Assembly (NCBI GenBank): GCA_041601615.1 | Contig: JBFIHX010000004.1 | Coordinates: 1-64,000 of the forward strand | Origin: Thermoplasmatota archaeon | GTDB lineage: Archaea; Thermoplasmatota; E2; JACPAO01; JAHFTW01 | Direction of reading: 5' to 3' | DNA length: 64,000 nt | Shown: positions 2,918 to 41,667 of the stretch, piece by piece | Layout: the number at the start of each line of letters is the position of its first letter | Numbering within the stretch: position 1 is the stretch's first letter | The notes under the pieces: model-generated | The model's input: only the letters and a program-made list of their open reading frames with translations | Database searches by the model: none | Told to the model about the DNA's origin: nothing | Program-made: the position numbers and the translations under genes

Positions 2918-3043
2918 CAAAGCGGCCGACAAATCAGTGATATAAGAGGGTAAGGGGGACGTGAAACCATTCGGCGTGGAGCCTCATAGAGAGGCTGGCA
3001 GCACGGAATGGGTTGGAAGGAGGGTCGCGGGGTGCGATGTGCT

Positions 3044-3817
3044 TCAGATGTCGCCAGCGTCGTAGACGAAATCGATAAGCAAGCCGCCACAGGCGTTGAT
3101 GTACACCGTGTCCGCCGCTTCAGGTACCACACCTGTGAGGGTTGGACCGCCTCCGGTGACGAGTCCGGTGGGGCTGCCGCTGTTCCAGAAGTGGACGCTG
3201 TATCCGTCGGTGGGGCCGATGGCCGCGTAGGTGATGGTGAACGGCTTTCCTAGTGTTTCAGGATCGGGTGTCGCCCGGTAGAAGGGGCCTGTGTGCAGAT
3301 TGTTCAGGTAGGCGTTGTTGATGCAGCCGTTGCCGCCGAAGTCGAAGGCACCTTCGATGTGTTGAATGTACGCGGGTGCTGCATCCATGGTGGCGTTCAC
3401 GGTCACGAGGAGCGTCTGGATGGTTTCGTTCGTGCCGTCGCTGACGGTGAAGGTTGCGGTCCAGTTGCCGGCCATGTAGGTGGCGTTCACAGTGGCGGGC
3501 AGTGCCGTGCCTTCCGTGGTGTTGCCTTCTCCGTGGTCGAAGCTCCAGGTGAGGTTGTCGCCGTCGGCGTCCGTGGCGTCGAGGGCGAAGGTGACGTTTA
3601 GGGGGGCTGTGCCGTTGAAGGCAGACGCTAGGAGGGTTGCCACGGGCGCGGTGTTGGTGACGTTTGTCACGGGCTCCATGGTTTCGTTGGTGCCATCCGT
3701 GGGTTCCTGTTGTACGGAATCCACTTCCTCTACTGGCGGATCGTCGCCGACGCACCCAGATAGGAATGCCAGTACGAAAACGGAGAGGATTGCTAGGGGT
3801 ACGCGTCGCGTGTGCAC
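3044..3817 (-). CDS. PKD-domain lipoprotein (paralog 1)
   Basis: lipobox LSGC, PKD-like APLNVTF..DADGDNLTWSFDHGEG; start probably GTG 3817. Confidence 0.75.
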   Translation of the reverse strand: MHTRRVPLAILSVFVLAFLSGCVGDDPPVEEVDSVQQEPTDGTNETMEPVTNVTNTAPVATLLASAFNGTAPLNVTFALDATDADGDNLTWSFDHGEGNTTEGTALPATVNATYMAGNWTATFTVSDGTNETIQTLLVTVNATMDAAPAYIQHIEGAFDFGGNGCINNAYLNNLHTGPFYRATPDPETLGKPFTITYAAIGPTDGYSVHFWNSGSPTGLVTGGGPTLTGVVPEAADTVYINACGGLLIDFVYDAGDI

Positions 3818-5502: not shown

Positions 5503-5706
5503 GGGCGGCCACGAGAACTCCAAGGATATGGCCCTTGTGTGCTATTGGGCCGATTCTAGAGTTGAGTTCAACATGCTAGAGACGCCTCAATTATTCAATT
5601 GAATTTCTCCTACGCCCAATAAAAGAGATCGATTGCAGAAAACACAAATTCATCATGCATAGAAAGTGGAAAAAGTGGGATGAGCTTACATCGCTCCAGT
5701 TCGAAG

Positions 5707-6636
5707 CTATTCGAAGGTAGCAGTGACGGTGTAGTCCATGGGAGGACTGGCGTAGTTCAGCACCTGGACCGTCCATGCGCCCGCCATGAGGCCGGCTGGG
5801 TTGGAGACGTGCAAGTCGCCCTCCGGTTCGATGCCTTGCACGGAGTAGGTCTCTTGTGCGTTCGCCTCGGCGCCAGTGGGGTCCAGCAAGTAGAGATCCA
5901 CGTCGCCGCCGAATCCGCTTACGTTGACGGTGATGCTTGTGTGGCAGGGGCCGAGCTCAAAGACGTGTTCACCCACTTCGCCCTGAAGGGTGACGGAGCC
6001 ATCCTCCACGAAGGGCTCCTGGGGGCCGGCAAAGTTGGCGCAGGGGTCTTCGATGGCTTCTACGGGTGCAACCATGAGAACTTCGGTGACCCTGGAGGTC
6101 TCGAAGCCGGCAGCGCTCACGGAGGCCAGGACTTCGAAGGTGCCGTTGCCGGGCACGGTGAAGTTGCCCACGGCCGGAAGCCCGGTGCCGTTGAGCACTA
6201 GAACCGGTTCGGGACTGGGCTCGGTGGTTCCATTTTCCGTGGCAGTGGTGACGGTCGCATTGCTACCTTCGGAGTTGGCGGTCGTGTTGCCGCTCTCGCC
6301 GCCGGTCGCGTTGCCGGTTGCGTTGCCGGTTGCGTTGCCGGTTGCGTCGTCCACAATGATCGTGGCGCTTGGGACGATCAGAATCGTCCAGGTCGCGTTG
6401 GCCACATCTAGAGTGTCGCTCGGGCTGCCGCTGACCCCATTGAGGGTGAAGCCGACGGGGGCGCCCTCTTGGACTTCATTCGAGTCTAGGAGGAACTGGA
6501 CTGCGATGCGCGGACCGCGCTCGTCGTTGGAATCAAAGGCACCCTCGACTTCATCGGCGCCCGGCACGCTTGCGCAGCCGGAAAGGGAGATTGCGAGAAT
6601 GAGAGCCATTGCAAGGCTCATTTTGGTACCCACCAT
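5707..6636 (-). CDS. secreted lipoprotein with C-terminal PPC-like beta-sandwich
   Basis: LSGC lipobox; GNAT repeats; DVDLYLLDPTG...GAWTVQV..Y pre-peptidase C-terminal-like motif. Confidence 0.65.
   Translation of the reverse strand: MVGTKMSLAMALILAISLSGCASVPGADEVEGAFDSNDERGPRIAVQFLLDSNEVQEGAPVGFTLNGVSGSPSDTLDVANATWTILIVPSATIIVDDATGNATGNATGNATGGESGNTTANSEGSNATVTTATENGTTEPSPEPVLVLNGTGLPAVGNFTVPGNGTFEVLASVSAAGFETSRVTEVLMVAPVEAIEDPCANFAGPQEPFVEDGSVTLQGEVGEHVFELGPCHTSITVNVSGFGGDVDLYLLDPTGAEANAQETYSVQGIEPEGDLHVSNPAGLMAGAWTVQVLNYASPPMDYTVTATFE
6308..6343. repeat. 12-bp tandem repeat x3 (gcgttgccggtt) encoding GNAT glycosylation sequons
   Basis: direct reading of the sequence. Confidence 0.8.
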
Positions 6637-26515: not shown

Positions 26516-26676
26516 CGACGCACGGCCCCTCCCTGAGCCGCTGGGTGCGAACTCCAGGCCGCCTCCACGGACCCCGAATGTGGCCCCAGAATAGGGATTT
26601 CTCGAATATCATACCATGCGGTTATCCTCGGTGCCCTATGCAACAAATCGGGCCTTGTGCCCAGGTGAATACCTCT

Positions 26677-27150
26677 ATGCAAAACAACACCAAGGCCGTC
26701 TTGATGGCCCTCATGCTCAGCAGCACCGTCGTCATGGCCGTCGCCCCCAGCTCCCAGGCTGCCTTCGTGGCCCCTAACCCCATTTGCCTCAACGGCGACT
26801 GGGCCACGGTCTGCCTCGGTACCGCCAGCGTCAGCCGCCAAATCGCCGACGTTGACCCCAGCAAGCTCGTGTTCCACTGCACCGACCCCGTCGGCACCGG
26901 CGACATCTGCGTCCCCACCGTGCCCAGCGTGATCGCCGCCGCGACCGCCAGCCGCAACGTCAACGTCGTCACCGCGACCTACAGCTACCAAATCCACGGC
27001 GCGAACATCATCTACGACATCTGCATGATTGTCTTCGGCAACCCCAACGTCTGCCGCTACACCGAGATCACCCTCGCTGACGCCGACAACGACGGCGCCC
27101 TCGACAGCGTCCTCCTCGACAACGTCGCCGTGCCCTTCACCTTCGCCTAG
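26677..27150 (+). CDS. secreted 6-Cys protein, paralog A
   Basis: signal peptide, three short Cys loops, DADNDG motif; AGGTGA upstream. Confidence 0.75.
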   Translation: MQNNTKAVLMALMLSSTVVMAVAPSSQAAFVAPNPICLNGDWATVCLGTASVSRQIADVDPSKLVFHCTDPVGTGDICVPTVPSVIAAATASRNVNVVTATYSYQIHGANIIYDICMIVFGNPNVCRYTEITLADADNDGALDSVLLDNVAVPFTFA

Positions 27151-27581
27151 GCTTGCCTAAGCATTCTTTTCCCTCTCCCCCTCACCATTCCCTTTGATGT
27201 TCTGTTCCGGCTCCAAGCCGGTTCCCGCGCCGAACCCGGCGCCAAATTCCCGGTCCACGGCCAAATCCAATTCCACAGCCGCACGCCACGGCTGCTTTCC
27301 CGTGCGGCGCCGTGCTCCCTTCTGCGCACGCCCCCCCCCCTCAGTCGCCGCGCTCCGCTCCCGCGCCATCCCCCAATCTCTGCGATTGTGCACTCCCCAC
27401 GTTGCCCCAACGCAACCCCATCAAACCCCCACCCCCATCCGGACCTCGGCAGCCTCGCCACGCGCCGCCAACGTAGCCCGGGACGAACAGTAAACCCGTA
27501 AGGATTTTTCAAACATCATAGTCGCGTGTTATGCGCGCAGCGGAATGCCCACACACAGGCAATCGCCTAGGAGTCAAATCC

Positions 27582-28052
27582 ATGCACAAAAACACCAAGG
27601 CCGTCACCATGGCCCTCATCATCAGCACCACTGCACTACTCGCCCTCGCCCCCAGCGGCCAGGCCAAAGCCGACTTCGAACTCAAACCGATCTGCCTCAA
27701 CGGCGACTGGGCCGACGTTTGCCTGAACGTGGTCAAGACCCAGCGCAACGTCATCGTACCCGATACCAGCCGCCTCGTCTACCACTGCACCGACCCCATC
27801 GGCACCGGCGACATCTGCGTCCCCACCGTGCCCAGCATCCAGGACGCCCTCACCGCGCGCCAGAACGTCAACTCGGTCACTGCCACCTACAGCTTCCAGG
27901 TCCACGGCCAAACCATCGTCTACGACATCTGCATGATCGTCTTCGGCAACCCCTACATCTGCGGCTTCACCGAGATCACCCTCGCTGACGCCGACAACGA
28001 CGGCGCCCTCGACAGCATCCTCGTCAACGACGTGGCCGTGCCGTTCTCCTAA
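27582..28052 (+). CDS. secreted 6-Cys protein, paralog B
   Basis: same architecture as 26677-27150; AGGAG upstream. Confidence 0.75.
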   Translation: MHKNTKAVTMALIISTTALLALAPSGQAKADFELKPICLNGDWADVCLNVVKTQRNVIVPDTSRLVYHCTDPIGTGDICVPTVPSIQDALTARQNVNSVTATYSFQVHGQTIVYDICMIVFGNPYICGFTEITLADADNDGALDSILVNDVAVPFS

Positions 28053-28091
28053 AACGTCTAGTAGTTGCCATTTCCCTCTTCCTTCCCCTCC

Positions 28092-29516
28092 ATGCAACGG
28101 TTGCTCCTCCTGCTCACTTTGATCGCCCTGGCCGGCGCCGCGCCCGCCTCCGCGTACACGCACCCAAGCAGCCAAATCCACGCAAGCGAACTCCAAGACG
28201 CAGTTTGGATCGATGCCTCCGGCACGCTACAGACCGGCATCGACGGCTCCGGCCAATTCGTCGTCACCTACGAACCGTACAATGCCGATATTCACCCTGC
28301 GATGGCAGATTGCTACGGACGCACCCTCTTTCGCGCCTCGCAGACCATGGAAGCCCGCAACGACCCAGCATCGCTCGTGGACTACATTGGCCACGGCACC
28401 GCCACCGCCAGTGCCGTTTGCGCCACTTGGGAAACCGCAGGCTCCGACTTTGACGGCGTCGCCCTCGGGACCAAACTGTTGTCCTGGAGCAGCCTCTACC
28501 CCGGCTCCGGCGACGGCTCCGTCGCCATGCACGAAGAATTTGGCCCCCGCGTTCTAACCGCCAGCGTCAGTTTCGCCAACCCCACAGACTCACCCGCCCA
28601 CGAATGGACCCCATACACCGAAGGAGCAGACATGGTGTTCACCTGGGCCGCAGGCAACACCGGCGGCGACGGCAGCACCGCTAACACCGTCCTCGCCGAT
28701 GGCGACGGGCGCGCCGTGATTGTCGGCGCCCTCGACGCCCAAGCGACCGCCGTAGCCGCCTACTCCTCCACCGGCAAAAAAGGCCAACCCGAAACCTACC
28801 CCACCCTCGTCGCACCCGGCTGCATGTGGGTCGTACAAGAACCCGGAAGCCCCGGTGGAGCCGCCCTGGCCGCCTCGAACCACGTTGTCGGCGACATGCT
28901 GTTCTCCTCCGGCGTCTGCCCCGACGTGGACCTTGACGAGTTCGCCCGCGCCAACGCCCTCGGATACACATTGCACCAAGGCACCAGCTTCTCTGCCCCG
29001 CTCGTAGCAGGCGTCTTTGCCATGATGTTCCAAGTCCACCCCACCCTCGACAACGGCACCGCAATCTACCTCGCCACCCGCACCGCCGACCACTTTCTGA
29101 CCACCAACGACACCAACCGCGACGGCCGCATCAGTCCCGACGAATTCCACGCCCAACACGGCTGGCAAGCCGGCTGGGGACGCATCAACGCCACCGCCGC
29201 CATCACCGCCGCGCACTACCTCCTGCTCCACCCCGACGCCAGCGCCGAGGAAGCCATCCAATGCGCCCGCACCGGACAAAGCGCCGCCGGCACCCTCATC
29301 CTAAATCCCGGCCCCAGCCCTGACCCCTGCGGCCGAACCGCCCCAGAAATCCCCGCCGAAACACCCCTTGCGCCCAATCCGTCCAGCCCCAGCAACAACA
29401 CCGAACCCGACTCCACCACGCCCCCCACGAGCCGCGCCACGCCCGCCACTCCCGCCGCGCCAACAATGTTCGCCATCCTAACACTCGCAGCGATTGCTTT
29501 GGGACGACGTCGGTAA
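28092..29516 (+). CDS. secreted S8 subtilase with atypical first catalytic residue and C-terminal anchor
   Basis: GHGTATAS, AAGN, GTSFSAPLVAG; E aligns to the catalytic D; TM-RRR tail. Confidence 0.82.
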   Translation: MQRLLLLLTLIALAGAAPASAYTHPSSQIHASELQDAVWIDASGTLQTGIDGSGQFVVTYEPYNADIHPAMADCYGRTLFRASQTMEARNDPASLVDYIGHGTATASAVCATWETAGSDFDGVALGTKLLSWSSLYPGSGDGSVAMHEEFGPRVLTASVSFANPTDSPAHEWTPYTEGADMVFTWAAGNTGGDGSTANTVLADGDGRAVIVGALDAQATAVAAYSSTGKKGQPETYPTLVAPGCMWVVQEPGSPGGAALAASNHVVGDMLFSSGVCPDVDLDEFARANALGYTLHQGTSFSAPLVAGVFAMMFQVHPTLDNGTAIYLATRTADHFLTTNDTNRDGRISPDEFHAQHGWQAGWGRINATAAITAAHYLLLHPDASAEEAIQCARTGQSAAGTLILNPGPSPDPCGRTAPEIPAETPLAPNPSSPSNNTEPDSTTPPTSRATPATPAAPTMFAILTLAAIALGRRR

Positions 29517-32435: not shown

Positions 32436-33593
32436 ATGCGTGATGTGTGCGTCGTCGGCGTCGGCATCACAAAGTACGGACGACACCAGTTGCACGCCCG
32501 AGAATTGATGAGCATGGCCGCCGACGCAGCGATCGGCAACGCCGGCATCGACGCCACGGACATCGAAGGCGGCTATTTTGGCAACGCATTCGGAATGGCC
32601 GAAAAACAGGGCCACCTCGGACCCCTCATCATGACGGCACTCGGCATCCCCGAAGTGCCCGCCACCGTCATGGAGACCGCCTGCGCCAGCGCCGGAACCG
32701 CCTTCCACCACGCCTACCGAGACGTAGCCGGCGGCTTTAGCGACATCGTGCTCACCGGCGGCGTCGAACGCGTCAGCATGCTCGACACCCTCACCGCCAC
32801 GACCTACTTCTCCTACGGCAGCGACTACACCTTCGAAGGCGGCAACGGCTGCAGCTTCCCCGGCCTCTACGCCACCATGGCCCGCGGCTACTTTGACAAA
32901 TACGGCGCCACCGAGGAAGACCTCGCCGCCGTCGCCATCAAAAACCACCACAACGCCACCATGAACCCCGTTGCACACCTGCAAAAGGAAATCACCATGG
33001 ACGACGTGATGGGCTCGATGAAGGTCGCAGATCCGCTGAAGCTCTACGACGCCTGCCCCTTCAGCGACGGAGCCGCCGCCGTGATCCTCTGCGACGAAGA
33101 AACCGCCAAGAAACTCACAGACACCCCCGTCTACGTCGAAGCCAGCACCCGAAGCGGCAGTGTTGCAAGCCTGCACGACCGCGACGACCTCACAACGATC
33201 CCCGGCTCCGTGCGCGCCGGCGAATTGGCCTACAAGCAAGCCAAAATGACCCCCAAAGACATGGACTTCTGGGAAGTGCACGATTGCTTCACCATCGCCG
33301 AAGTGGTCGCAAGCGAAGACCTCGGCATCTTCGAGCGCGGCACAGGCGCACAAGCCGCCACCGACGGACTCACCGCTCACGACGGCAAGCGACCCATCAA
33401 CCCCAGCGGCGGTCTCAAAGCCAAAGGCCACCCCGTCGGCGCCACCGGAGCGGGCCAAATCGTGGAAGTCTACGAACAGCTACTCGGACAAGCAGGCGGA
33501 CGCCAAGTTAGCGACGCAACACGCGCCATGACCCACAACGTCGGCGCCACCGGCGGAACCGTAGTTACGAATATTTTGAGCCGGAGGTCCTGA
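32436..33593 (+). CDS. acetyl-CoA acetyltransferase (archaeal thiolase)
   Basis: ETACASA, EVHDCFT, NPSGGLKAKGHPVGATG. Confidence 0.93.
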   Translation: MRDVCVVGVGITKYGRHQLHARELMSMAADAAIGNAGIDATDIEGGYFGNAFGMAEKQGHLGPLIMTALGIPEVPATVMETACASAGTAFHHAYRDVAGGFSDIVLTGGVERVSMLDTLTATTYFSYGSDYTFEGGNGCSFPGLYATMARGYFDKYGATEEDLAAVAIKNHHNATMNPVAHLQKEITMDDVMGSMKVADPLKLYDACPFSDGAAAVILCDEETAKKLTDTPVYVEASTRSGSVASLHDRDDLTTIPGSVRAGELAYKQAKMTPKDMDFWEVHDCFTIAEVVASEDLGIFERGTGAQAATDGLTAHDGKRPINPSGGLKAKGHPVGATGAGQIVEVYEQLLGQAGGRQVSDATRAMTHNVGATGGTVVTNILSRRS

Positions 33594-33675: not shown

Positions 33676-34074
33676 ATGGGACAAGAACAAGTCCACGCGG
33701 CGCCGCGCCCCATGCTTTCCATGACGGAGCAACAAGCCAAGCTCAAGGACGGCGAAATCTGGGGCTTCCACTGTGATGCTTGCTCCTACGAACAATTCAG
33801 CCCCATGCTGCGCTGCCCCAAGTGCCGCAAATCCGAACTCTCCACGCGCCAGTTCAGCAACAAAGGCAAAGTCATCAGCTACACCATCCAGAGTGTTGCC
33901 GCCGAGGCGTTCCTGAACGAAACGCCATTCGCCTTCGCCATCATCGACCTCGACGACGGCCCTAAGGTTAGTGGTTGGGTGCCTTGGATTGGCCGCCCGT
34001 CCGAGCTTCCCCTCGGTTCGGCCGTGGAGTACACGCCGAGCTACAAGCCGGGAATGCAATTCGAGAAGTGTTGA
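33676..34074 (+). CDS. DUF35 Zn-ribbon/OB-fold thiolase partner
   Basis: CDAC...CPKC, GKVISYTI, directly downstream of the thiolase. Confidence 0.9.
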   Translation: MGQEQVHAAPRPMLSMTEQQAKLKDGEIWGFHCDACSYEQFSPMLRCPKCRKSELSTRQFSNKGKVISYTIQSVAAEAFLNETPFAFAIIDLDDGPKVSGWVPWIGRPSELPLGSAVEYTPSYKPGMQFEKC

Positions 34075-34168
34075 GCGAAGCGAAACATTTCTCGAAGAGC
34101 GAGGCCGCAGGCCGAGCGGACCTTGGCGGCATGCTTGCACGCCGTCAAGGGGTTCGAGAAAGGCCGAG

Positions 34169-34310
34169 GCGCCCAGCGCCGAGGTCTTTCTCGCGTGTTC
34201 ACGAACCATGACACTCCACCCCCCGTTAATGCCGCACGCCGACGCGCCCAGCGCCGAGGTCTTTCTCGCGTGTTGACGAACCGTGGCACTCCACCCACCG
34301 CAATGCCGCA
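34169..34310. repeat. two imperfect tandem copies of a ~68-bp unit (period about 75 bp)
   Basis: gcgcccagcgccgaggtctttctcgcgtgtt(c/g)acgaacc...cactccacc...aatgccgca at ~34169 and ~34244. Confidence 0.85.
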
Positions 34311-34465
34311 GCCCCACCGGACCCAGGACAGCACAGAAGGCACAAGAGATAGAACCCGAGTGTATTGAGCCAATCAAACCGCTCTTGCAACCCATGAAAG
34401 TTTCCATTCCAGACACCCTGCGGCCATCCGATAAACTATTTTGACCCCCTTCCCCCATCCAGATT

Positions 34466-35281
34466 ATGGCCGACCTTCCCCACCTTGGCGTCGGACTGGG
34501 ATACCGCGAACCGATGCGCAGGGACATCCTCGCCAACCTTGGTGGCCTGGATTTTTTTGAAGTGGTCACGGACGCATACTTTCGCAACCCCAAGGCTTTG
34601 CAGGCGCTCGCGTCGCTGAAAACCTGCATTCCCCACTCCCTGCACTGCTCTGTGGGCTCCAGCACTGAACCCGCGTACCTGGAGAAGGTCGCAGGCATTG
34701 TCGAGAGCCTGGCGCCCCCGTGGCACTCCGACCACCTCGCCTTCACACACGCAGGCAACGTTTCCTCAGGCCACCTTGCGCCCATCCCTTACACGGACGA
34801 AGCCCTCGACCTCGTAGTGCAAAACATCCGCCGCATCCAAGCCCGCATCCCGGTGCCGTTTGCCCTCGAAAACATCACCATGGTGTTCTACTGGCCACAC
34901 TCCACCATGGACGAACACACGTTCCTGTCCGAAGTAGTTCGCCGCACCGGATGCCACCTCTTGCTCGATCTGGAAAACGTCCGCGTCAACACCATCAACC
35001 ACGGCCTATACGGTCGAGGCGGGCGCGACTTTCTTGACGCCCTGCCCCTGGAACGAGTGGCCCAAGTGCACATCGCCGGCGGCCAGCACCACAAAGGGCT
35101 CGAACACGACACCCACGCTGCGCCGGTCTCTGCCGCCACCTGGGACCTGCTTTCGTATCTTTGCGACCATGTCACCCCGCCGGGAATCCTTCTGGAACGA
35201 GACGCGGCGCTACCTCCATTTTCGGAACTTCTTGCAGAGGTCCAACGCGCCCGCTCCATCGTGCAGAGGGTGCTTGCATGA
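34466..35281 (+). CDS. DUF692 family multinuclear non-heme iron oxidative enzyme (MNIO; MbnB/TglH/ChrH/BufB-like)
   Basis: GVGLGYR, DFFEV, PHS, SDHLAF, LEN, LLLDLEN, HIAGG, DTH, LLERD metal-ligand motifs. Confidence 0.93.
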   Translation: MADLPHLGVGLGYREPMRRDILANLGGLDFFEVVTDAYFRNPKALQALASLKTCIPHSLHCSVGSSTEPAYLEKVAGIVESLAPPWHSDHLAFTHAGNVSSGHLAPIPYTDEALDLVVQNIRRIQARIPVPFALENITMVFYWPHSTMDEHTFLSEVVRRTGCHLLLDLENVRVNTINHGLYGRGGRDFLDALPLERVAQVHIAGGQHHKGLEHDTHAAPVSAATWDLLSYLCDHVTPPGILLERDAALPPFSELLAEVQRARSIVQRVLA

Positions 35282-36072
35282 GCATGGAAGCGATGCAGGT
35301 GGTGGCCGCAAAGCTGCTGACCGACCACGAATACCGCGCCTCCTTCTTCGATGCTCCACCCAACGCATTCGCGGATCACGGATTGGAACGCGCGGAGTTT
35401 CTGGTGTTGCGGATGCTCGACGCAAGCAAGCTGGACATTGTCTCCGAAGGCTATGTGGGCAAACGCTGGGACGTGATCGGCTCCGTGTTTCCACGAACAC
35501 TCGACGCCCTTGCCCATTTCTGCCCCGGCGCCCGCCAAACCTACCTAGAATCCACCTCGACCCCTGCAAACGACACCGAAGAACGGGCTGCATTCCGGAC
35601 GTTTCTGGACGAAACTATCGATGTGGCTACGGACGAACGCCGGTATCTTTGCGACCTAGCGCACTTGGACGGGGCACTACACGACCATCCACTTCCAGCC
35701 GGGCTTCCGGAATACCGATTCCGCCCAGAGAGTACCAAGCCACGTCGAGCAGCCGACGCCATCACCCTTGCCGTCGCCGGACCCTTAGAGCACCACATCG
35801 GACTCCGCACCAACACGAGCGCCCCCAGGCTCGAAGCATCCTCTTCGCCGCTGCCCTGGAGCTACTCGGAGAGTCCTCGGAACCTGTTGGTGCTGCGCGA
35901 GGGAGGCTCGTTCACACTCGAACTCCTGGACGACAACCAAGCGGCACTGCTTGCATCCTGCGACGGCACCCAGACCGTTGCCGCATTGGTGCAAGCGCAT
36001 GGAACAGACGCAGATAACCGGCTTCGCACATGGTTTCGGCACCGTATTGTGGAAGACGCAGCAAGCGTCTGA
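35278..36072 (+). CDS. MNIO partner protein (DUF2063/HvfC/BufC-like, C-terminal winged-helix/RRE-like)
   Basis: ATGA overlap with DUF692; KRWDVIGSVFPRTLDAL, DLAHLD, LLASCDGTQTVAAL. Confidence 0.75.
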   Translation: MSMEAMQVVAAKLLTDHEYRASFFDAPPNAFADHGLERAEFLVLRMLDASKLDIVSEGYVGKRWDVIGSVFPRTLDALAHFCPGARQTYLESTSTPANDTEERAAFRTFLDETIDVATDERRYLCDLAHLDGALHDHPLPAGLPEYRFRPESTKPRRAADAITLAVAGPLEHHIGLRTNTSAPRLEASSSPLPWSYSESPRNLLVLREGGSFTLELLDDNQAALLASCDGTQTVAALVQAHGTDADNRLRTWFRHRIVEDAASV

Positions 36073-36074
36073 AC

Positions 36075-36270
36075 ACGACTGAAATTAAATCTCAAGGTTT
36101 TCTTTTACTTTCATACCCATTTTAGTACCCACAAACGTCGCTTTGTTCCCCGTTTCCTAGTTATTTCATTCCCCCTCTTGCATTCTCAAATATATACTTG
36201 ATTGATTCTGATTAAGTGTGGAACATTATTCCTGCCAGTTGCAAACGGCCTTCTCGGCCAATTGCACAAC
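36075..36270 (+). promoter_or_regulatory. AT-rich promoter region with TATA-like box (~36188-36197) and a 5'-leader hairpin (36238-36270)
   Basis: aaatatatac; gttgcaa..ggcc-ttctc-ggcc..ttgca.aac followed by AAGGAG. Confidence 0.55.
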
Positions 36271-36286
36271 AAGGAGAGACACAAAC

Positions 36287-36604
36287 ATGAGCTACATCAA
36301 GCCCCTCGTCACCCTACTCGACAACACGACCGAACTCGCCGGCTGCCGCCCCTGCATCCAAGTCGGAGCCCTCGCCATCGGCCGCCAACCCAGCATCACC
36401 CTCGGCGACTCCATCGACGGCGTTCCGAGCAACGCCACGACCGTCGGCGCCCCGTGCCCCACGGCCCCCACCCCCGGCACCCCCGAAGTCGGCGGAATCA
36501 GCAAACCCGGACCGATCGACACCAACGACATCATCGCCAGCCACGGCATCTCCGACTCCTTCTCGGCAGACGTGGGCGGCGTAGACGTCACCGTCACCCT
36601 CTAG
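36287..36604 (+). CDS. small CxxC protein (105 aa), candidate MNIO substrate/RiPP precursor
   Basis: AAGGAG RBS, host-like C-ending codons, GCRPC at residues 19-23, directly after the MNIO pair. Confidence 0.65.
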   Translation: MSYIKPLVTLLDNTTELAGCRPCIQVGALAIGRQPSITLGDSIDGVPSNATTVGAPCPTAPTPGTPEVGGISKPGPIDTNDIIASHGISDSFSADVGGVDVTVTL

Positions 36605-36627
36605 GATCAGAGCAAGGACTGATATCC

Positions 36628-37263
36628 ATGCTCCCAAGAAAGATCCTGCTGCTCGCAGTGGCAATCCTGGTGACCCCCATGGTTGCCCCAGCTGGAGGCG
36701 CACACCCATACCCTGTGCCGGCCCCCGACCTAGGCCCCTGCAACGCCAGCGAACCGTCGCACCACTACGTCACCGGCACCAGCCTCGACGTTGGCAACTC
36801 CGCCCTGCCCACCGTCACGTGGCGCACCACCGTACTCCTGTTCGACTCGTGCGCCTTCATCGATGGTGAGGGCGACTTTGGCGTCGGCGGCGGCTTCCTG
36901 CCCACCAACCACCACGGCATTAACGGCGCTGGCGTGTGGAGCGGCGAAGTGTGCGTCGAAGACGACGTCTACGGTTTCGACGTGGAATTCGTTGTGGGCG
37001 TCAGCCCCGGCGGCGGCGTCATCAACGAAGTCGCACACGGAACCGGCTGCATCTACGTCAGCCTGCCCTCCTTCTACCCCCAGCCCGCACCGAACCCGCC
37101 CTCCCCGGGCGCGGACGGTGGCATCTGGGTGTTCCTGGAGAACACCGTTGGCGACCCCAACGCGGCAACGCAGATCAACCTCGACCCGAGCAACGTCTCG
37201 GCGACCGCCAAGGTTGCCCCCGGCGTAGTCGTGCCCACCACGGGACACATCTACACCCAGTAG
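36628..37263 (+). CDS. secreted hypothetical protein (4 Cys, His pairs)
   Basis: signal peptide MLPRKILLLAVAILV, AAGGA upstream, co-oriented with the candidate precursor. Confidence 0.7.
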   Translation: MLPRKILLLAVAILVTPMVAPAGGAHPYPVPAPDLGPCNASEPSHHYVTGTSLDVGNSALPTVTWRTTVLLFDSCAFIDGEGDFGVGGGFLPTNHHGINGAGVWSGEVCVEDDVYGFDVEFVVGVSPGGGVINEVAHGTGCIYVSLPSFYPQPAPNPPSPGADGGIWVFLENTVGDPNAATQINLDPSNVSATAKVAPGVVVPTTGHIYTQ

Positions 37264-37532
37264 ACCAAACCCGGACCCTTTTCCCCCTCCCCCTCCCCAT
37301 CCCCCGTCCTTCTTTGCTTCCAGTTGCCACGTCCAACTCCCAAACCCGTGCCGTGGATTCGAGCCCCCAAACAAGGGCACGCACACTGCCGCCAGCCTAT
37401 GATACAACCTCCGATCGCGAGTCGAGCTACCTGGAAACTCATCCACCAACCCACACCACCAAAGCCCATCCTAGCGAACCGTCACCGGGCTACACCCCAT
37501 CGCAAATGCACCAAACCTGGCCCAGAAACAAC

Positions 37533-38453
37533 TCAAGGGAACGTGGTCGCCACAGCCGACAACTCCGCCAACAACGCATCCCCTTCGGCATTCCCATACG
37601 TCACCAAAATCCGATCGTGGTCCCGCATCACATAACCATCAATGTGCGGCAACCGCGCCCAATTGTGGCTGCCGTTGGGCGCAACAAACACCCGCAGCGT
37701 CATGTTTTCCGAGTCCTCGTAGACCACGCCATCATGCACGGGCACATTCAGCCGCAGCCGACCCTGATGAAGCTCTGAGCCTAAAGACAACCAGAAGAAT
37801 TCCGACAACGTAAGCCCCGGCGCGCCTTCAATGTGCATCGAGTCCTGATCCGGATTGTGCATATGCGCACGAAGGAACCCCGAATTTTGCAAGTCAAACG
37901 CCGGATCCGTGAAATTGACGCGTTCGCCCTCGACAAAGACCGCAAACGCCGCGTGCAAGTGCACATCCTCGACCGGCTCCGGGGCCGTCAAAAACGCGAA
38001 CCCCACCACGCCCGAAAATGCCAGCACAATGGACAGCAACACCACCGGCAGCCACGGCACAGCACGACGCTCGGGTGCTGGAGCCGCCGCCACAGCCCCC
38101 TCCTCCTTTGCCGCCTCGATGCGCTTGCGCAACAAAGCATCCGCCTCGTCCAGAATCAAACGGGCGCGCTCCACGAGCCCCTCAGCCCAACCCACCGCAT
38201 TGGCTGTGACCGCCATGTGGTGCTCCAATTCGTCCCCGCGCAGATACCGCGACAAGCTCCGAATCCCAAGCGCCAACAACACCAACGGAAGAGTCGTGCA
38301 GGCCCAAAGCAACCACAAAACCATCCCCGAGAACGGCAACCCACCCCCTTGCAATTGACCAAAAACATGCACGGACGCCAACACCAAGGAAGGAACCACG
38401 GGAGCCACCCAAACCACAGACGGCACACGATCCGTCACCCTCGGGCCACTCAT
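37533..38453 (-). CDS. membrane protein with His-rich extracellular domain
   Basis: 3 TM; HLHAAF...HMH...HIE pattern. Confidence 0.65.
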   Translation of the reverse strand: MSGPRVTDRVPSVVWVAPVVPSLVLASVHVFGQLQGGGLPFSGMVLWLLWACTTLPLVLLALGIRSLSRYLRGDELEHHMAVTANAVGWAEGLVERARLILDEADALLRKRIEAAKEEGAVAAAPAPERRAVPWLPVVLLSIVLAFSGVVGFAFLTAPEPVEDVHLHAAFAVFVEGERVNFTDPAFDLQNSGFLRAHMHNPDQDSMHIEGAPGLTLSEFFWLSLGSELHQGRLRLNVPVHDGVVYEDSENMTLRVFVAPNGSHNWARLPHIDGYVMRDHDRILVTYGNAEGDALLAELSAVATTFP

Positions 38454-40878: not shown

Positions 40879-41667
40879 CTACGCGGCTGGCTTGCGACCC
40901 ATCACATGCAGAGCCGCACCCATCGCCGCCACCGACGAATACAACGCCATTTGTTCCTCGAGCGCCCAAAAACGACGACGCAAATCCTCGTTCTCTTGCA
41001 AGGCCACAAACACCTCCTCGGTCACGAAATTGTTCAACGAGCCCTTCCCCGCCACCAACACGTCCTCGGCGCCCGCCTCCACAAACAACGACTCCAATTC
41101 AGCCGGAGCAAACGCATGGACCGTGTTGCCATACGGGTCCTTATTCAGGCCCTGCTCCGCACAAACCAAGGCATCCTCAACGCTACCCTGCGTCAGCATT
41201 CCAATCGCATGCAACCAGCGGTTGTCGCACGACACATAGAAACCCCCGCCCGGCCGCAAGACCCGCAAAAACTCCCGCGCCACCTCCTTGCGCGAATCAA
41301 AGCAATACGACAACGGATCACCTTCACAGAACACGAAATCGAAGGCACCATCCTCGAAGGGCAAATCATCGATGCTGCCCTCGACGTAACGCACCGGAGC
41401 GTCCGACGGAAACTCCTCGCCTATGCGTGTGCGCGCCACGTCCAGCATACCCTTCGACAAATCCAACAACGTCACATCGAAGCCCTGGCGAAGATAATGC
41501 ACCGAGAACCGCCCCGTCCCCGCGCCCGCATCCAGAACCCGACCCGACGACGGCAGCACGGTCGCGGCACTCTTCAAAGTCAAATGGTCCAGCAACTTCC
41601 AACGCGGACCGCTCACATGGCCGTCGTATTCGCTGGCCACCTCATCGTAACAGGCAATCGCATCCAT
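40879..41667 (-). CDS. class I SAM-dependent methyltransferase
   Basis: VLDAGAGTG, LDLS..ML, LPFEDGAFD, RVLRPGG. Confidence 0.9.
   Translation of the reverse strand: MDAIACYDEVASEYDGHVSGPRWKLLDHLTLKSAATVLPSSGRVLDAGAGTGRFSVHYLRQGFDVTLLDLSKGMLDVARTRIGEEFPSDAPVRYVEGSIDDLPFEDGAFDFVFCEGDPLSYCFDSRKEVAREFLRVLRPGGGFYVSCDNRWLHAIGMLTQGSVEDALVCAEQGLNKDPYGNTVHAFAPAELESLFVEAGAEDVLVAGKGSLNNFVTEEVFVALQENEDLRRRFWALEEQMALYSSVAAMGAALHVMGRKPAA

Follow-up and report, generated by a model that had tools for sequence, protein, structure and literature searches.

A candidate substrate family with an N-proximal cysteine pair beside an MNIO and its partner in Thermoplasmatota archaea

The MNIO systems characterized in the literature cited here, including methanobactins, bufferins, oxazolins, chryseobasins, pearlins, and others, are bacterial. 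Literature searches for MNIO, DUF692, or MbnB together with Thermoplasmatota or Poseidoniales found no such work among the matches listed, and two supplementary files of the 2025 landscape paper (PMC12452194) contain neither "Thermoplasmat" nor "archaeon." In this context, a stretch of 64,000 nucleotides from a Thermoplasmatota archaeon (contig JBFIHX010000004.1, positions 1 to 64,000; hereafter, the window) raises a question, since an MNIO gene and a partner gene are followed there by a short gene, P1, with a cysteine pair near its N terminus. An earlier note, made from the sequence alone, had regarded P1 as a candidate precursor. Is P1 a substrate of this enzyme pair, or a neighbor with another role?

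RESULTS

P1 is a conserved gene with nine invariant positions

The translation of P1 given in the earlier note was exact (105 amino acids; Table 1). The reading frame has a GC3 of 0.89, and the protein shares 66% identity with its orthologue in genome G020. Between these two genes, 24 of 30 residues are the same in amino acids 1 to 30, where 10 of the 16 base changes fall at third codon positions, and 22 of 26 are the same in amino acids 53 to 78, with 8 of 13 changes at third positions. On this comparative sequence evidence, P1 is a real, conserved gene, beyond a chance ORF. Because all homologues begin with M-x-Y-x-K-P at an ATG, the start was placed at 36287, and the in-frame GTG farther upstream (36218) was discounted. 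Cysteines stand at positions 20, 23, and 57 of the translation, and within the first 19 residues D12 and E16 are acidic while K5 is the sole basic residue. As the earlier note had described, no hydrophobic signal peptide is visible by eye at the N terminus, and the tail, which by eye is rich in Pro, Gly, Thr, Val, and Ser, holds one further cysteine (Cys57). P1 matched no Pfam or NCBIfam family, and the sequence search of its family against the PDB gave nothing significant. The public runs holding positions 34400 to 37300 were four DNA runs of one study, with no RNA run listed.

Table 1. Features of the P1 locus, with positions counted from the first letter of the window
Feature	Positions	Strand	Basis
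Thiolase	32436-33593	+	
DUF35-like gene	33676-34074	+	
Two 75-bp direct repeats (63-nt core, 92% identical) between the DUF35 gene and MNIO	34163-34317		
MNIO (DUF692, MbnB/TglH/ChrH family), 271 aa	34466-35281	+	PF05114, E 1.2e-76
Partner, 264 aa, helical N-domain and C-terminal strand-helix domain	35278-36072	+	AF2 model, Foldseek
T-rich tract in 214-bp low-GC spacer	36097-36126	+	Read from sequence
A/T-rich TATA-like box, aaatatatac	36188-36197	+	Read from sequence; partly conserved in G020
18-nt block ATTGATTCTGATTAAGTG, identical upstream of P1 in G020	36201-36218	+	Alignment
Imperfect hairpin or inverted repeat, 9 bp, in the 5' leader	36240-36266	+	Folding, shuffles, G020 alignment
AAGGAG ribosome-binding site	36271-36276	+	Read from sequence
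P1, candidate MNIO substrate, 105 aa	36287-36604	+	Translation, invariant columns, coding signal, distribution
P1 conserved N-terminal segment, aa 1-19	36287-36343	+	Alignment
P1 Cys20 and Cys23	36344-36355	+	
P1 Cys57	36455-36457	+	
P2, secreted, 211 aa, four invariant Cys and HH pairs	36628-37263	+	Translation, four-member alignment
Membrane protein, 306 aa, His-rich C-terminal domain	37533-38453	-	Conserved neighborhood
MFS transporter, listed ORF 669 aa	38450-40459	-	PF07690, E 8.8e-39
SAM-dependent methyltransferase	40879-41667	-	Methyltransf_25/11

An alignment of 16 family members (193 columns) revealed nine invariant columns, namely Y3, K5, P6, E16, the cysteine pair (20/23), one mid-protein cysteine, and two prolines, with the pair and the third cysteine present in 16/16 members. 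The pair is C-x-P-C in the subfamily of the window and CC in the other subfamily; between the two subfamilies, identity is 43% from Met1 to the second cysteine versus 20% for the remainder. Family proteins are 71 to 152 amino acids long and by eye rich in Gly, Thr, Val, and Pro, and those of the CC type often carry C-terminal cysteine pairs; this composition looks extracellular, yet a signal peptide is missing. Members of the CC subfamily are as conserved over the ∼15 residues that come behind the cysteines (CCF[Y/F][Y/F]xNxGQGxYxY) as at the N terminus, which blurs any boundary between leader and core. The division into a ∼19-residue leader, a CxxC core, and a long follower, as the earlier note had it, is therefore uncertain, the more so since the third cysteine, which would lie in the follower, is invariant.

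The MNIO is no equivalog of a named family and its partner resembles TglI and NGO1945

The MNIO, which occurs in a single copy in this genome, matches positions 1 to 262 of the 263 of PF05114. Its best NCBIfam models are BufB (204 bits; cutoff, 310) and HvfB (171 bits; cutoff, 360), and since both scores are under the cutoffs, it is no equivalog of any named family. The ChrH model gave 45.7 bits (cutoff, 600), and the nearest PDB sequences are 3bww (E 1.3e-30) and TglH (8hci_D; E 1.6e-23). The start of the partner gene overlaps the MNIO stop codon (ATGA). The partner protein matched no Pfam family, including no DUF2063 match even at E ≤ 10, and a sequence search of the PDB gave nothing significant. 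Its AF2 model (pLDDT 82.2) consists of helices at residues 3 to 136, followed by strands and three helices at residues 155 to 260. The best Foldseek match of this model is TglI (8hi7_A; E 2.6e-5; TM 0.58; probability 1.00), and NGO1945 was also matched (3dee; E 3.6e-4; TM 0.51/0.64; probability 1.00), with both matches spanning the full length of the model. The order that marks PME-type partners, a helical DUF2063-like domain and then an RRE-type domain, was found in the predicted structure, by which the partner is a TglI/NGO1945-like protein of the PME-type 2 kind. The MNIO context assumed for P1 was thus borne out, as the gene directly follows an MNIO and a TglI/NGO1945-like partner.

Some minor observations concern the partner. 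Residues 5 to 57 (window positions 35278 to 35450) show a weak NHLP-clan leader-like match below the cutoff (NF038399; E 1.2e-4), and LigA was weakly matched by one partner homologue. The partner gene of G014 (L023, positions 5650 to 6408, minus strand) has an in-frame TAA at codon 70, which may be a sequencing error or the mark of a pseudogene; the contig title gives ∼1× coverage.

P1 stays beside the partner gene in several genomes

P1 begins 214 bp downstream of the partner gene in the window and ∼110 bp after it in G014. In G292, which belongs to another family, a P1-like ORF beginning MTYSKPLFAPVTNDRESAGCC lies 55 bp past the partner gene and runs off the end of its contig; the more complete assembly L085 gives the local gene order as methyltransferase, MNIO, partner, 142-aa P1-like gene, and glmS. 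Another organism (L082) carries genes for a membrane protein, an MFS transporter, a P1-like protein, the partner, the MNIO, and a methyltransferase. In that locus, the P1-like and partner genes converge, with their ends 23 bp apart, and the adjacency of the two therefore survives inversion. In four assembled loci (the window, G014, G292/L085, and L082), the partner gene thus has a P1 gene as its immediate neighbor. The arrangement in G020, where the MNIO gene and a cut partner gene close one contig and P1 begins 300 bp into another, is consistent with the same adjacency without proving it. The earlier note had held that a lack of the N-terminal motif beside homologous MNIOs would speak against a precursor; homologous MNIO/partner pairs in other genomes do have the motif beside them, and the finding therefore withstands this check.

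Copies of P1 also occur away from the enzymes. The N-terminal DNA of P1 recurs at nine places in G292, with 77 to 100% identity, corresponding to seven genes of 71 to 152 amino acids (the repeat sites are L061 to L069, on contigs C21, C43, C47, C20, C35, C44, C29, C33, and C36). These paralogues have ∼100 nt of near-identical 5' sequence in common and lie mostly among housekeeping genes, with one at the MNIO. Four contig ends fall exactly inside the repeat and two P1-like genes are split across contig ends, indicating that the gene family itself fragments this assembly. The copies in L081, L083, L084, and L086 have no cluster gene within 8 kb. In the genome of the window, P1 is a single copy.

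Conversely, the enzyme pair was found in two genomes in which P1 was not. G018 (87% complete) and G016 (71% complete) encode the same MNIO/partner subtype, with MNIO identities of 58% and 64%, and neither gave a relative of P1 or P2 with profiles A3, A6, and A7; the enzyme pair can thus exist without P1, unless these assemblies miss it. The partner gene of G016 is directly followed by the membrane-protein and MFS genes, and in G018 the genes flanking the enzyme pair encode a giant surface protein and an HTH-FHA protein. The giant upstream ORF of G018 was considered as a substrate and rejected, as it terminates with a membrane anchor and lacks a cysteine motif.

The P1 family is rare and tracks one partner subtype

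A search with the single P1 sequence (P0001) found only the G020 orthologue. With a three-sequence profile (A1) against 1.84 billion representatives, 31 matches were obtained at E ≤ 1e-3, two of which (P0003 and P0005) align from residue 1 and are true relatives. The other 29, proteins of 326 to 4,223 amino acids matched in the tail region only and in 4 to 12 stretches, were treated as low-complexity matches; the two that were inspected are both repeat proteins. The family profile retrieved 14 proteins from 5.8 billion protein clusters. Class-wide, P1 (profile A3) and P2 were each detected in 3/197 genomes, which were the same three. An 11-sequence profile (A7) detected the family in 4/401 sampled genomes of the phylum (G000, G020, G014, and G292), including the G292 paralogues, which profile A3 had missed (E 0.76, within noise) and which were recognized by position before their confirmation with A7. 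At E ≤ 1e-3 the partner search matched 7 of the 401 genomes; the match was strong (E ≤ 2.5e-53) in five, which include all four P1-bearing genomes. A third genome of the genus (G019; 79% complete) shows neither the MNIO nor P1. In metagenomes, a scan with profile A3 found no relative and a scan with profile A9 found seven loci, one of which (L087; 37% GC, 27-aa match) was discarded as a false positive. Since the comparative evidence rests on perhaps three independent lineages, the counts above overstate its statistical weight.

The region upstream of P1 suggests separate transcription

The spacer between the partner gene and P1 has a GC content of ∼0.50, versus ∼0.62 around it. Its T-rich tract may end the MNIO-partner transcript, and a TATA-like box, a putative promoter element, is present as the earlier note had pointed out. 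The 18-nt block that follows, which may be a promoter or operator element, contains a TGATT direct repeat. Taken together, the low GC content, the T-runs, and the A/T box of this spacer suggest that P1 and P2 are transcribed apart from the enzyme genes, from a promoter region of their own. A sigma-70 and terminator scan gave nothing relevant, the sigma-70 model being one that does not cover archaeal promoters. The AAGGAG named in the earlier note was likewise found, 10 nt ahead of the ATG, and GGAG also stands upstream of the G020 and G014 orthologues.

The hairpin fared less well. What had been described as a 33-bp hairpin protecting the leader has only 9 bp (5 + 4 bp with a 2 × 2 internal loop and a 5-nt loop; -12 kcal/mol) and is statistically weak (z -2.07; 7 of 200 shuffles fold equally well), and similar values were obtained for the complete 121-nt leader of P1 (z -2.08; 6 of 200 shuffles). 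The matching stretch of G020 folds at z -0.23. The arms are identical in G020, with differences confined to the loop and bulge, so that there is no compensatory change, and the conserved arms could belong either to an RNA stem or to an inverted repeat that a protein binds. Moreover, no comparable stem was found upstream of the G014 copy or the G292 copy on C43, and the G292 copy on C21 is preceded by a different, GC-rich stem; a hairpin-protected leader was therefore not upheld as a feature of P1.

Neighboring genes include histidine-rich and transport proteins

P2 starts 23 nt past the end of P1 and was found downstream of P1 in G000, G020, and G014. In the P2 family (n = 4), C38, C75, C109, C141, H45/46, and H95/96 are invariant. 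P2 has no Pfam, NCBIfam, or PDB relative; its AF2 model (pLDDT 46.8) is unusable, and an Atlas feature search gave unnamed clusters only (0.86). In L085 and L082, the P1 gene next to the MNIO is not followed by P2, which is therefore not an obligatory part of the system. Distant P2-like secreted proteins are encoded in G292, at L068 (positions 2984 to 3688) after a scattered P1 paralogue, by which the P1-P2 pairing recurs away from the MNIO, and at L070 (positions 2384 to 2815), where the gene stands apart from any P1 copy, after one for a 423-aa secreted protein.

On the opposite strand, the membrane protein matched nothing in Pfam, NCBIfam, or the PDB; its C-terminal domain has the motifs HLH...HMH...MHIEG. 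Homologues adjoin the MNIO cluster in G020, G014, G016, G292/L085, and L082, and the gene is paired with that of the MFS transporter next to the cluster in the window, L026, L023, L024, L061, and L082, the transporter being conserved in the same loci as the membrane protein. The true start of the transporter is probably downstream of 40459. The methyltransferase is 46% identical to the copy adjoining the MNIO in G292 and is also encoded by the MNIO in G014 and L082, while the stretch of G020 that was searched (L026) gave no match. No protease gene was recognized among the conserved cluster genes.

Upstream of the MNIO, there is no alternative small ORF; in G020 the gap between the DUF35 gene and the MNIO gene is only 109 bp. 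In view of this short gap, the direct repeats in the window look like a small insertion or MITE-like element. Elsewhere in the window, two very similar paralogous small secreted Cys-rich proteins (positions 26545 to 27150 and 27531 to 28052) are encoded near a subtilisin-like protease gene (28065 to 29516).

DISCUSSION

Comparison with known MNIO systems

PME-type 2 partners of MNIOs have been described, and partner type correlates with the presence or absence of a signal peptide on the precursor (Antoine et al. 2025, PMC12452194). By analogy, the P1 system appears to work most like those in which a PME-type 2 partner goes with a substrate that lacks a signal peptide: P1 likewise has none, and, as in TglH/TglI/TglA of the 3-thiaglutamate/pearlin pathway, an MNIO stands beside a partner that lacks the DUF2063 Pfam signature and has a predicted fold matching TglI (and NGO1945). 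The likeness has limits. The MNIO is only distantly related to TglH, and the target also differs, as TglH acts on a C-terminal cysteine (PMC13056109) and P1 has an N-proximal cysteine pair. The C-terminal cysteine of TglA is added by a PEARL enzyme, and no gene for such an enzyme was seen among the examined genes of the P1 cluster.

The nearest named models, BufB and HvfB, point to the bufferin/Hvf systems, with which P1 also shares a protein-sized substrate with conserved cysteines, and the His-rich neighbors make a shared metal-handling theme plausible. P1 is nevertheless not a bufferin (BufA), as it has no Sec signal peptide and no DUF2282 or BUF_6/12Cys signature, the MNIO is under the BufB cutoff, and the partner lacks DUF2063; nor is it an oxazolin/HvfA, as EGKCG-type tandem repeats are absent. 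ChrA has two cysteines with a proline between them, as C-P-x-C against C-x-P-C in P1. Its CPxCGxG motif stands at the C terminus, and ChrH carries an additional helical bundle at its own C-terminal end (PMC13056109). In P1, the motif occupies residues 20 to 23 of 105 without a GxG, and the 271-aa MNIO lacks the bundle and scores far under the ChrH cutoff; a ChrA-type assignment was thus rejected, and the difference in motif position that the earlier note had drawn was correct. By description, adjamnio-7 is similar, being a CxxC precursor without a signal peptide beside a minor MNIO cluster; it is bacterial, with a Novilysobacter representative (PMC12452194).

The scattered copies of G292 recall another kind of organization. 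In prochlorosin biosynthesis, a single modifying enzyme acts on many precursors with a common leader whose genes are scattered, and G292 similarly has seven paralogues with a near-identical N terminus, of which just one adjoins the enzyme gene. The enzymes are of different classes, however, and the genome of the window is single-copy.

A second MNIO type, ∼36% identical to the MNIO of the window and followed by its own partner gene, was observed in six sister-genus genomes. A small ORF with KSCGS(A/M)K-type repeats precedes it in L016 (positions 5844 to 6338), L017 (6813 to 7223), L018 (7075 to 7326), L021 (7108 to 7554), and L025 (5664 to 6008), the count covering five of the six loci, with L022 as the sixth. 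By its sequence features, this is an oxazolin/EGKCG-like archaeal system. The upstream KSCGS-repeat peptides and the ∼36% MNIO identity set it apart from the P1 system.

Proposed role of P1 and competing explanations

Since a rare family is found beside this one type of enzyme pair, P1 is probably the ribosomally made substrate of the adjacent MNIO and its TglI/NGO1945-like partner. P1 has the general marks of an MNIO substrate, being encoded beside an MNIO and a partner and having conserved cysteines in a family-specific motif. Several observations speak against it: G018 and G016 gave the enzyme pair but no P1, the conservation that follows the cysteine pair in the CC subfamily does not fit a simple leader with a variable core, the proteins look extracellular by composition yet lack a signal peptide, no protease gene was recognized in the cluster, and the partner gene of G014 has its in-frame TAA.

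Under the proposed mechanism, the N-terminal ∼19 residues (M-x-Y-x-K-P-hydrophobic ... E-x-A-small) would serve as a recognition segment held by the partner, and the cysteine pair (C20-x-P-C23, or CC in the sister subfamily) would thereby be placed at the multi-iron site for oxidative modification; the invariant Cys57 might be modified as well. BufB and HvfB both make 5-thiooxazoles. By analogy with these enzymes, the product would most likely be a small protein that bears a heterocycle (thiooxazole-type) and binds metal, as opposed to a short secreted peptide. The methyltransferase, the MFS transporter, and the His-rich membrane protein would probably act in the same pathway, and these neighbors, together with the His-rich P2, would fit metal handling. 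A more far-reaching version is less likely than not: in a previously unrecognized pathway, one archaeal enzyme/partner pair may mature a family of signal-peptide-less proteins, present in one to seven copies per genome and scattered in the manner of prochlorosin genes, through a new reaction on the cysteine pair after a shared N terminus (perhaps with the third cysteine), to give metal-binding or cross-linked proteins whose partners in function would be the secreted His/Cys protein, the His-rich membrane protein, and the MFS transporter together with the methyltransferase.

The explanation that best survives beside a substrate role is that P1, alone or with P2, is a functional neighbor, a small metal- or redox-related cysteine protein sharing a pathway or regulon with the genes for the MNIO, MFS transporter, membrane protein, and methyltransferase, while the enzyme pair would act on another substrate. 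Genomes G018 and G016, which carry the enzyme pair with no P1 found, are in its favor, as are the location of most G292 paralogues far from the MNIO, the length of P1 and its conservation past the cysteine pair, and the seemingly separate promoter region of P1 and P2. The confinement of P1 to genomes with this partner subtype (4/4) and its persistence beside the partner gene despite inversion speak, however, against a mere neighbor. In addition, no other conserved candidate ORF adjoins the MNIO, the characterized MNIOs named in the cited papers all act on a peptide or protein, and in a survey of MNIO clusters a gene for the putative precursor usually lies close by (PMC12452194). We therefore consider a role as functional neighbor unlikely.

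Still less probable, with odds that we regard as slim, is that the secreted four-cysteine P2 is the true, bufferin-like substrate, modified before export, and that P1 is an accessory. P2 does have a signal peptide, four invariant cysteines, and His pairs, it follows P1 in three genomes, and Sec signal peptides occur on most MNIO precursors (PMC12452194). Nevertheless, L085 and L082 lack it after the MNIO-adjacent P1, the P2-like genes of G292 are in other places (one behind a scattered P1 paralogue, the other on its own), and neither DUF2282 nor another bufferin signature was found in P2. Finally, a lipoprotein-like or exported P1, with Cys20 as the lipidation or cleavage site and incidental proximity to the MNIO, was rejected as highly improbable: the lipobox-like [A/S][G/A/S]C, with small residues at -1 and -2 before the invariant cysteine, and a bacterial ChrH-type MNIO system that sends precursors into the lipoprotein pathway (PMC13056109) recommend it, but P1 shows neither a basic n-region nor a hydrophobic h-region, acidic residues come within 8 positions of the cysteine, the in-frame sequence upstream adds no signal peptide, and the second cysteine is equally invariant.

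Significance

With P1 as the probable substrate, P1 and its relatives form a credible, although unproven, new family of precursors or substrates of an archaeal MNIO, as judged from genomic sequence. Were P1 indeed the substrate, the known MNIO repertoire would gain an archaeal pathway and a new precursor architecture, in which a cysteine pair comes right after a short conserved N terminus in a protein of 70 to 150 amino acids without a signal peptide, as well as a multicopy arrangement of one enzyme and many substrates. The three-gene system could reveal new cysteine chemistry or an archaeal class of metal-binding proteins in marine and other environmental Thermoplasmatota.
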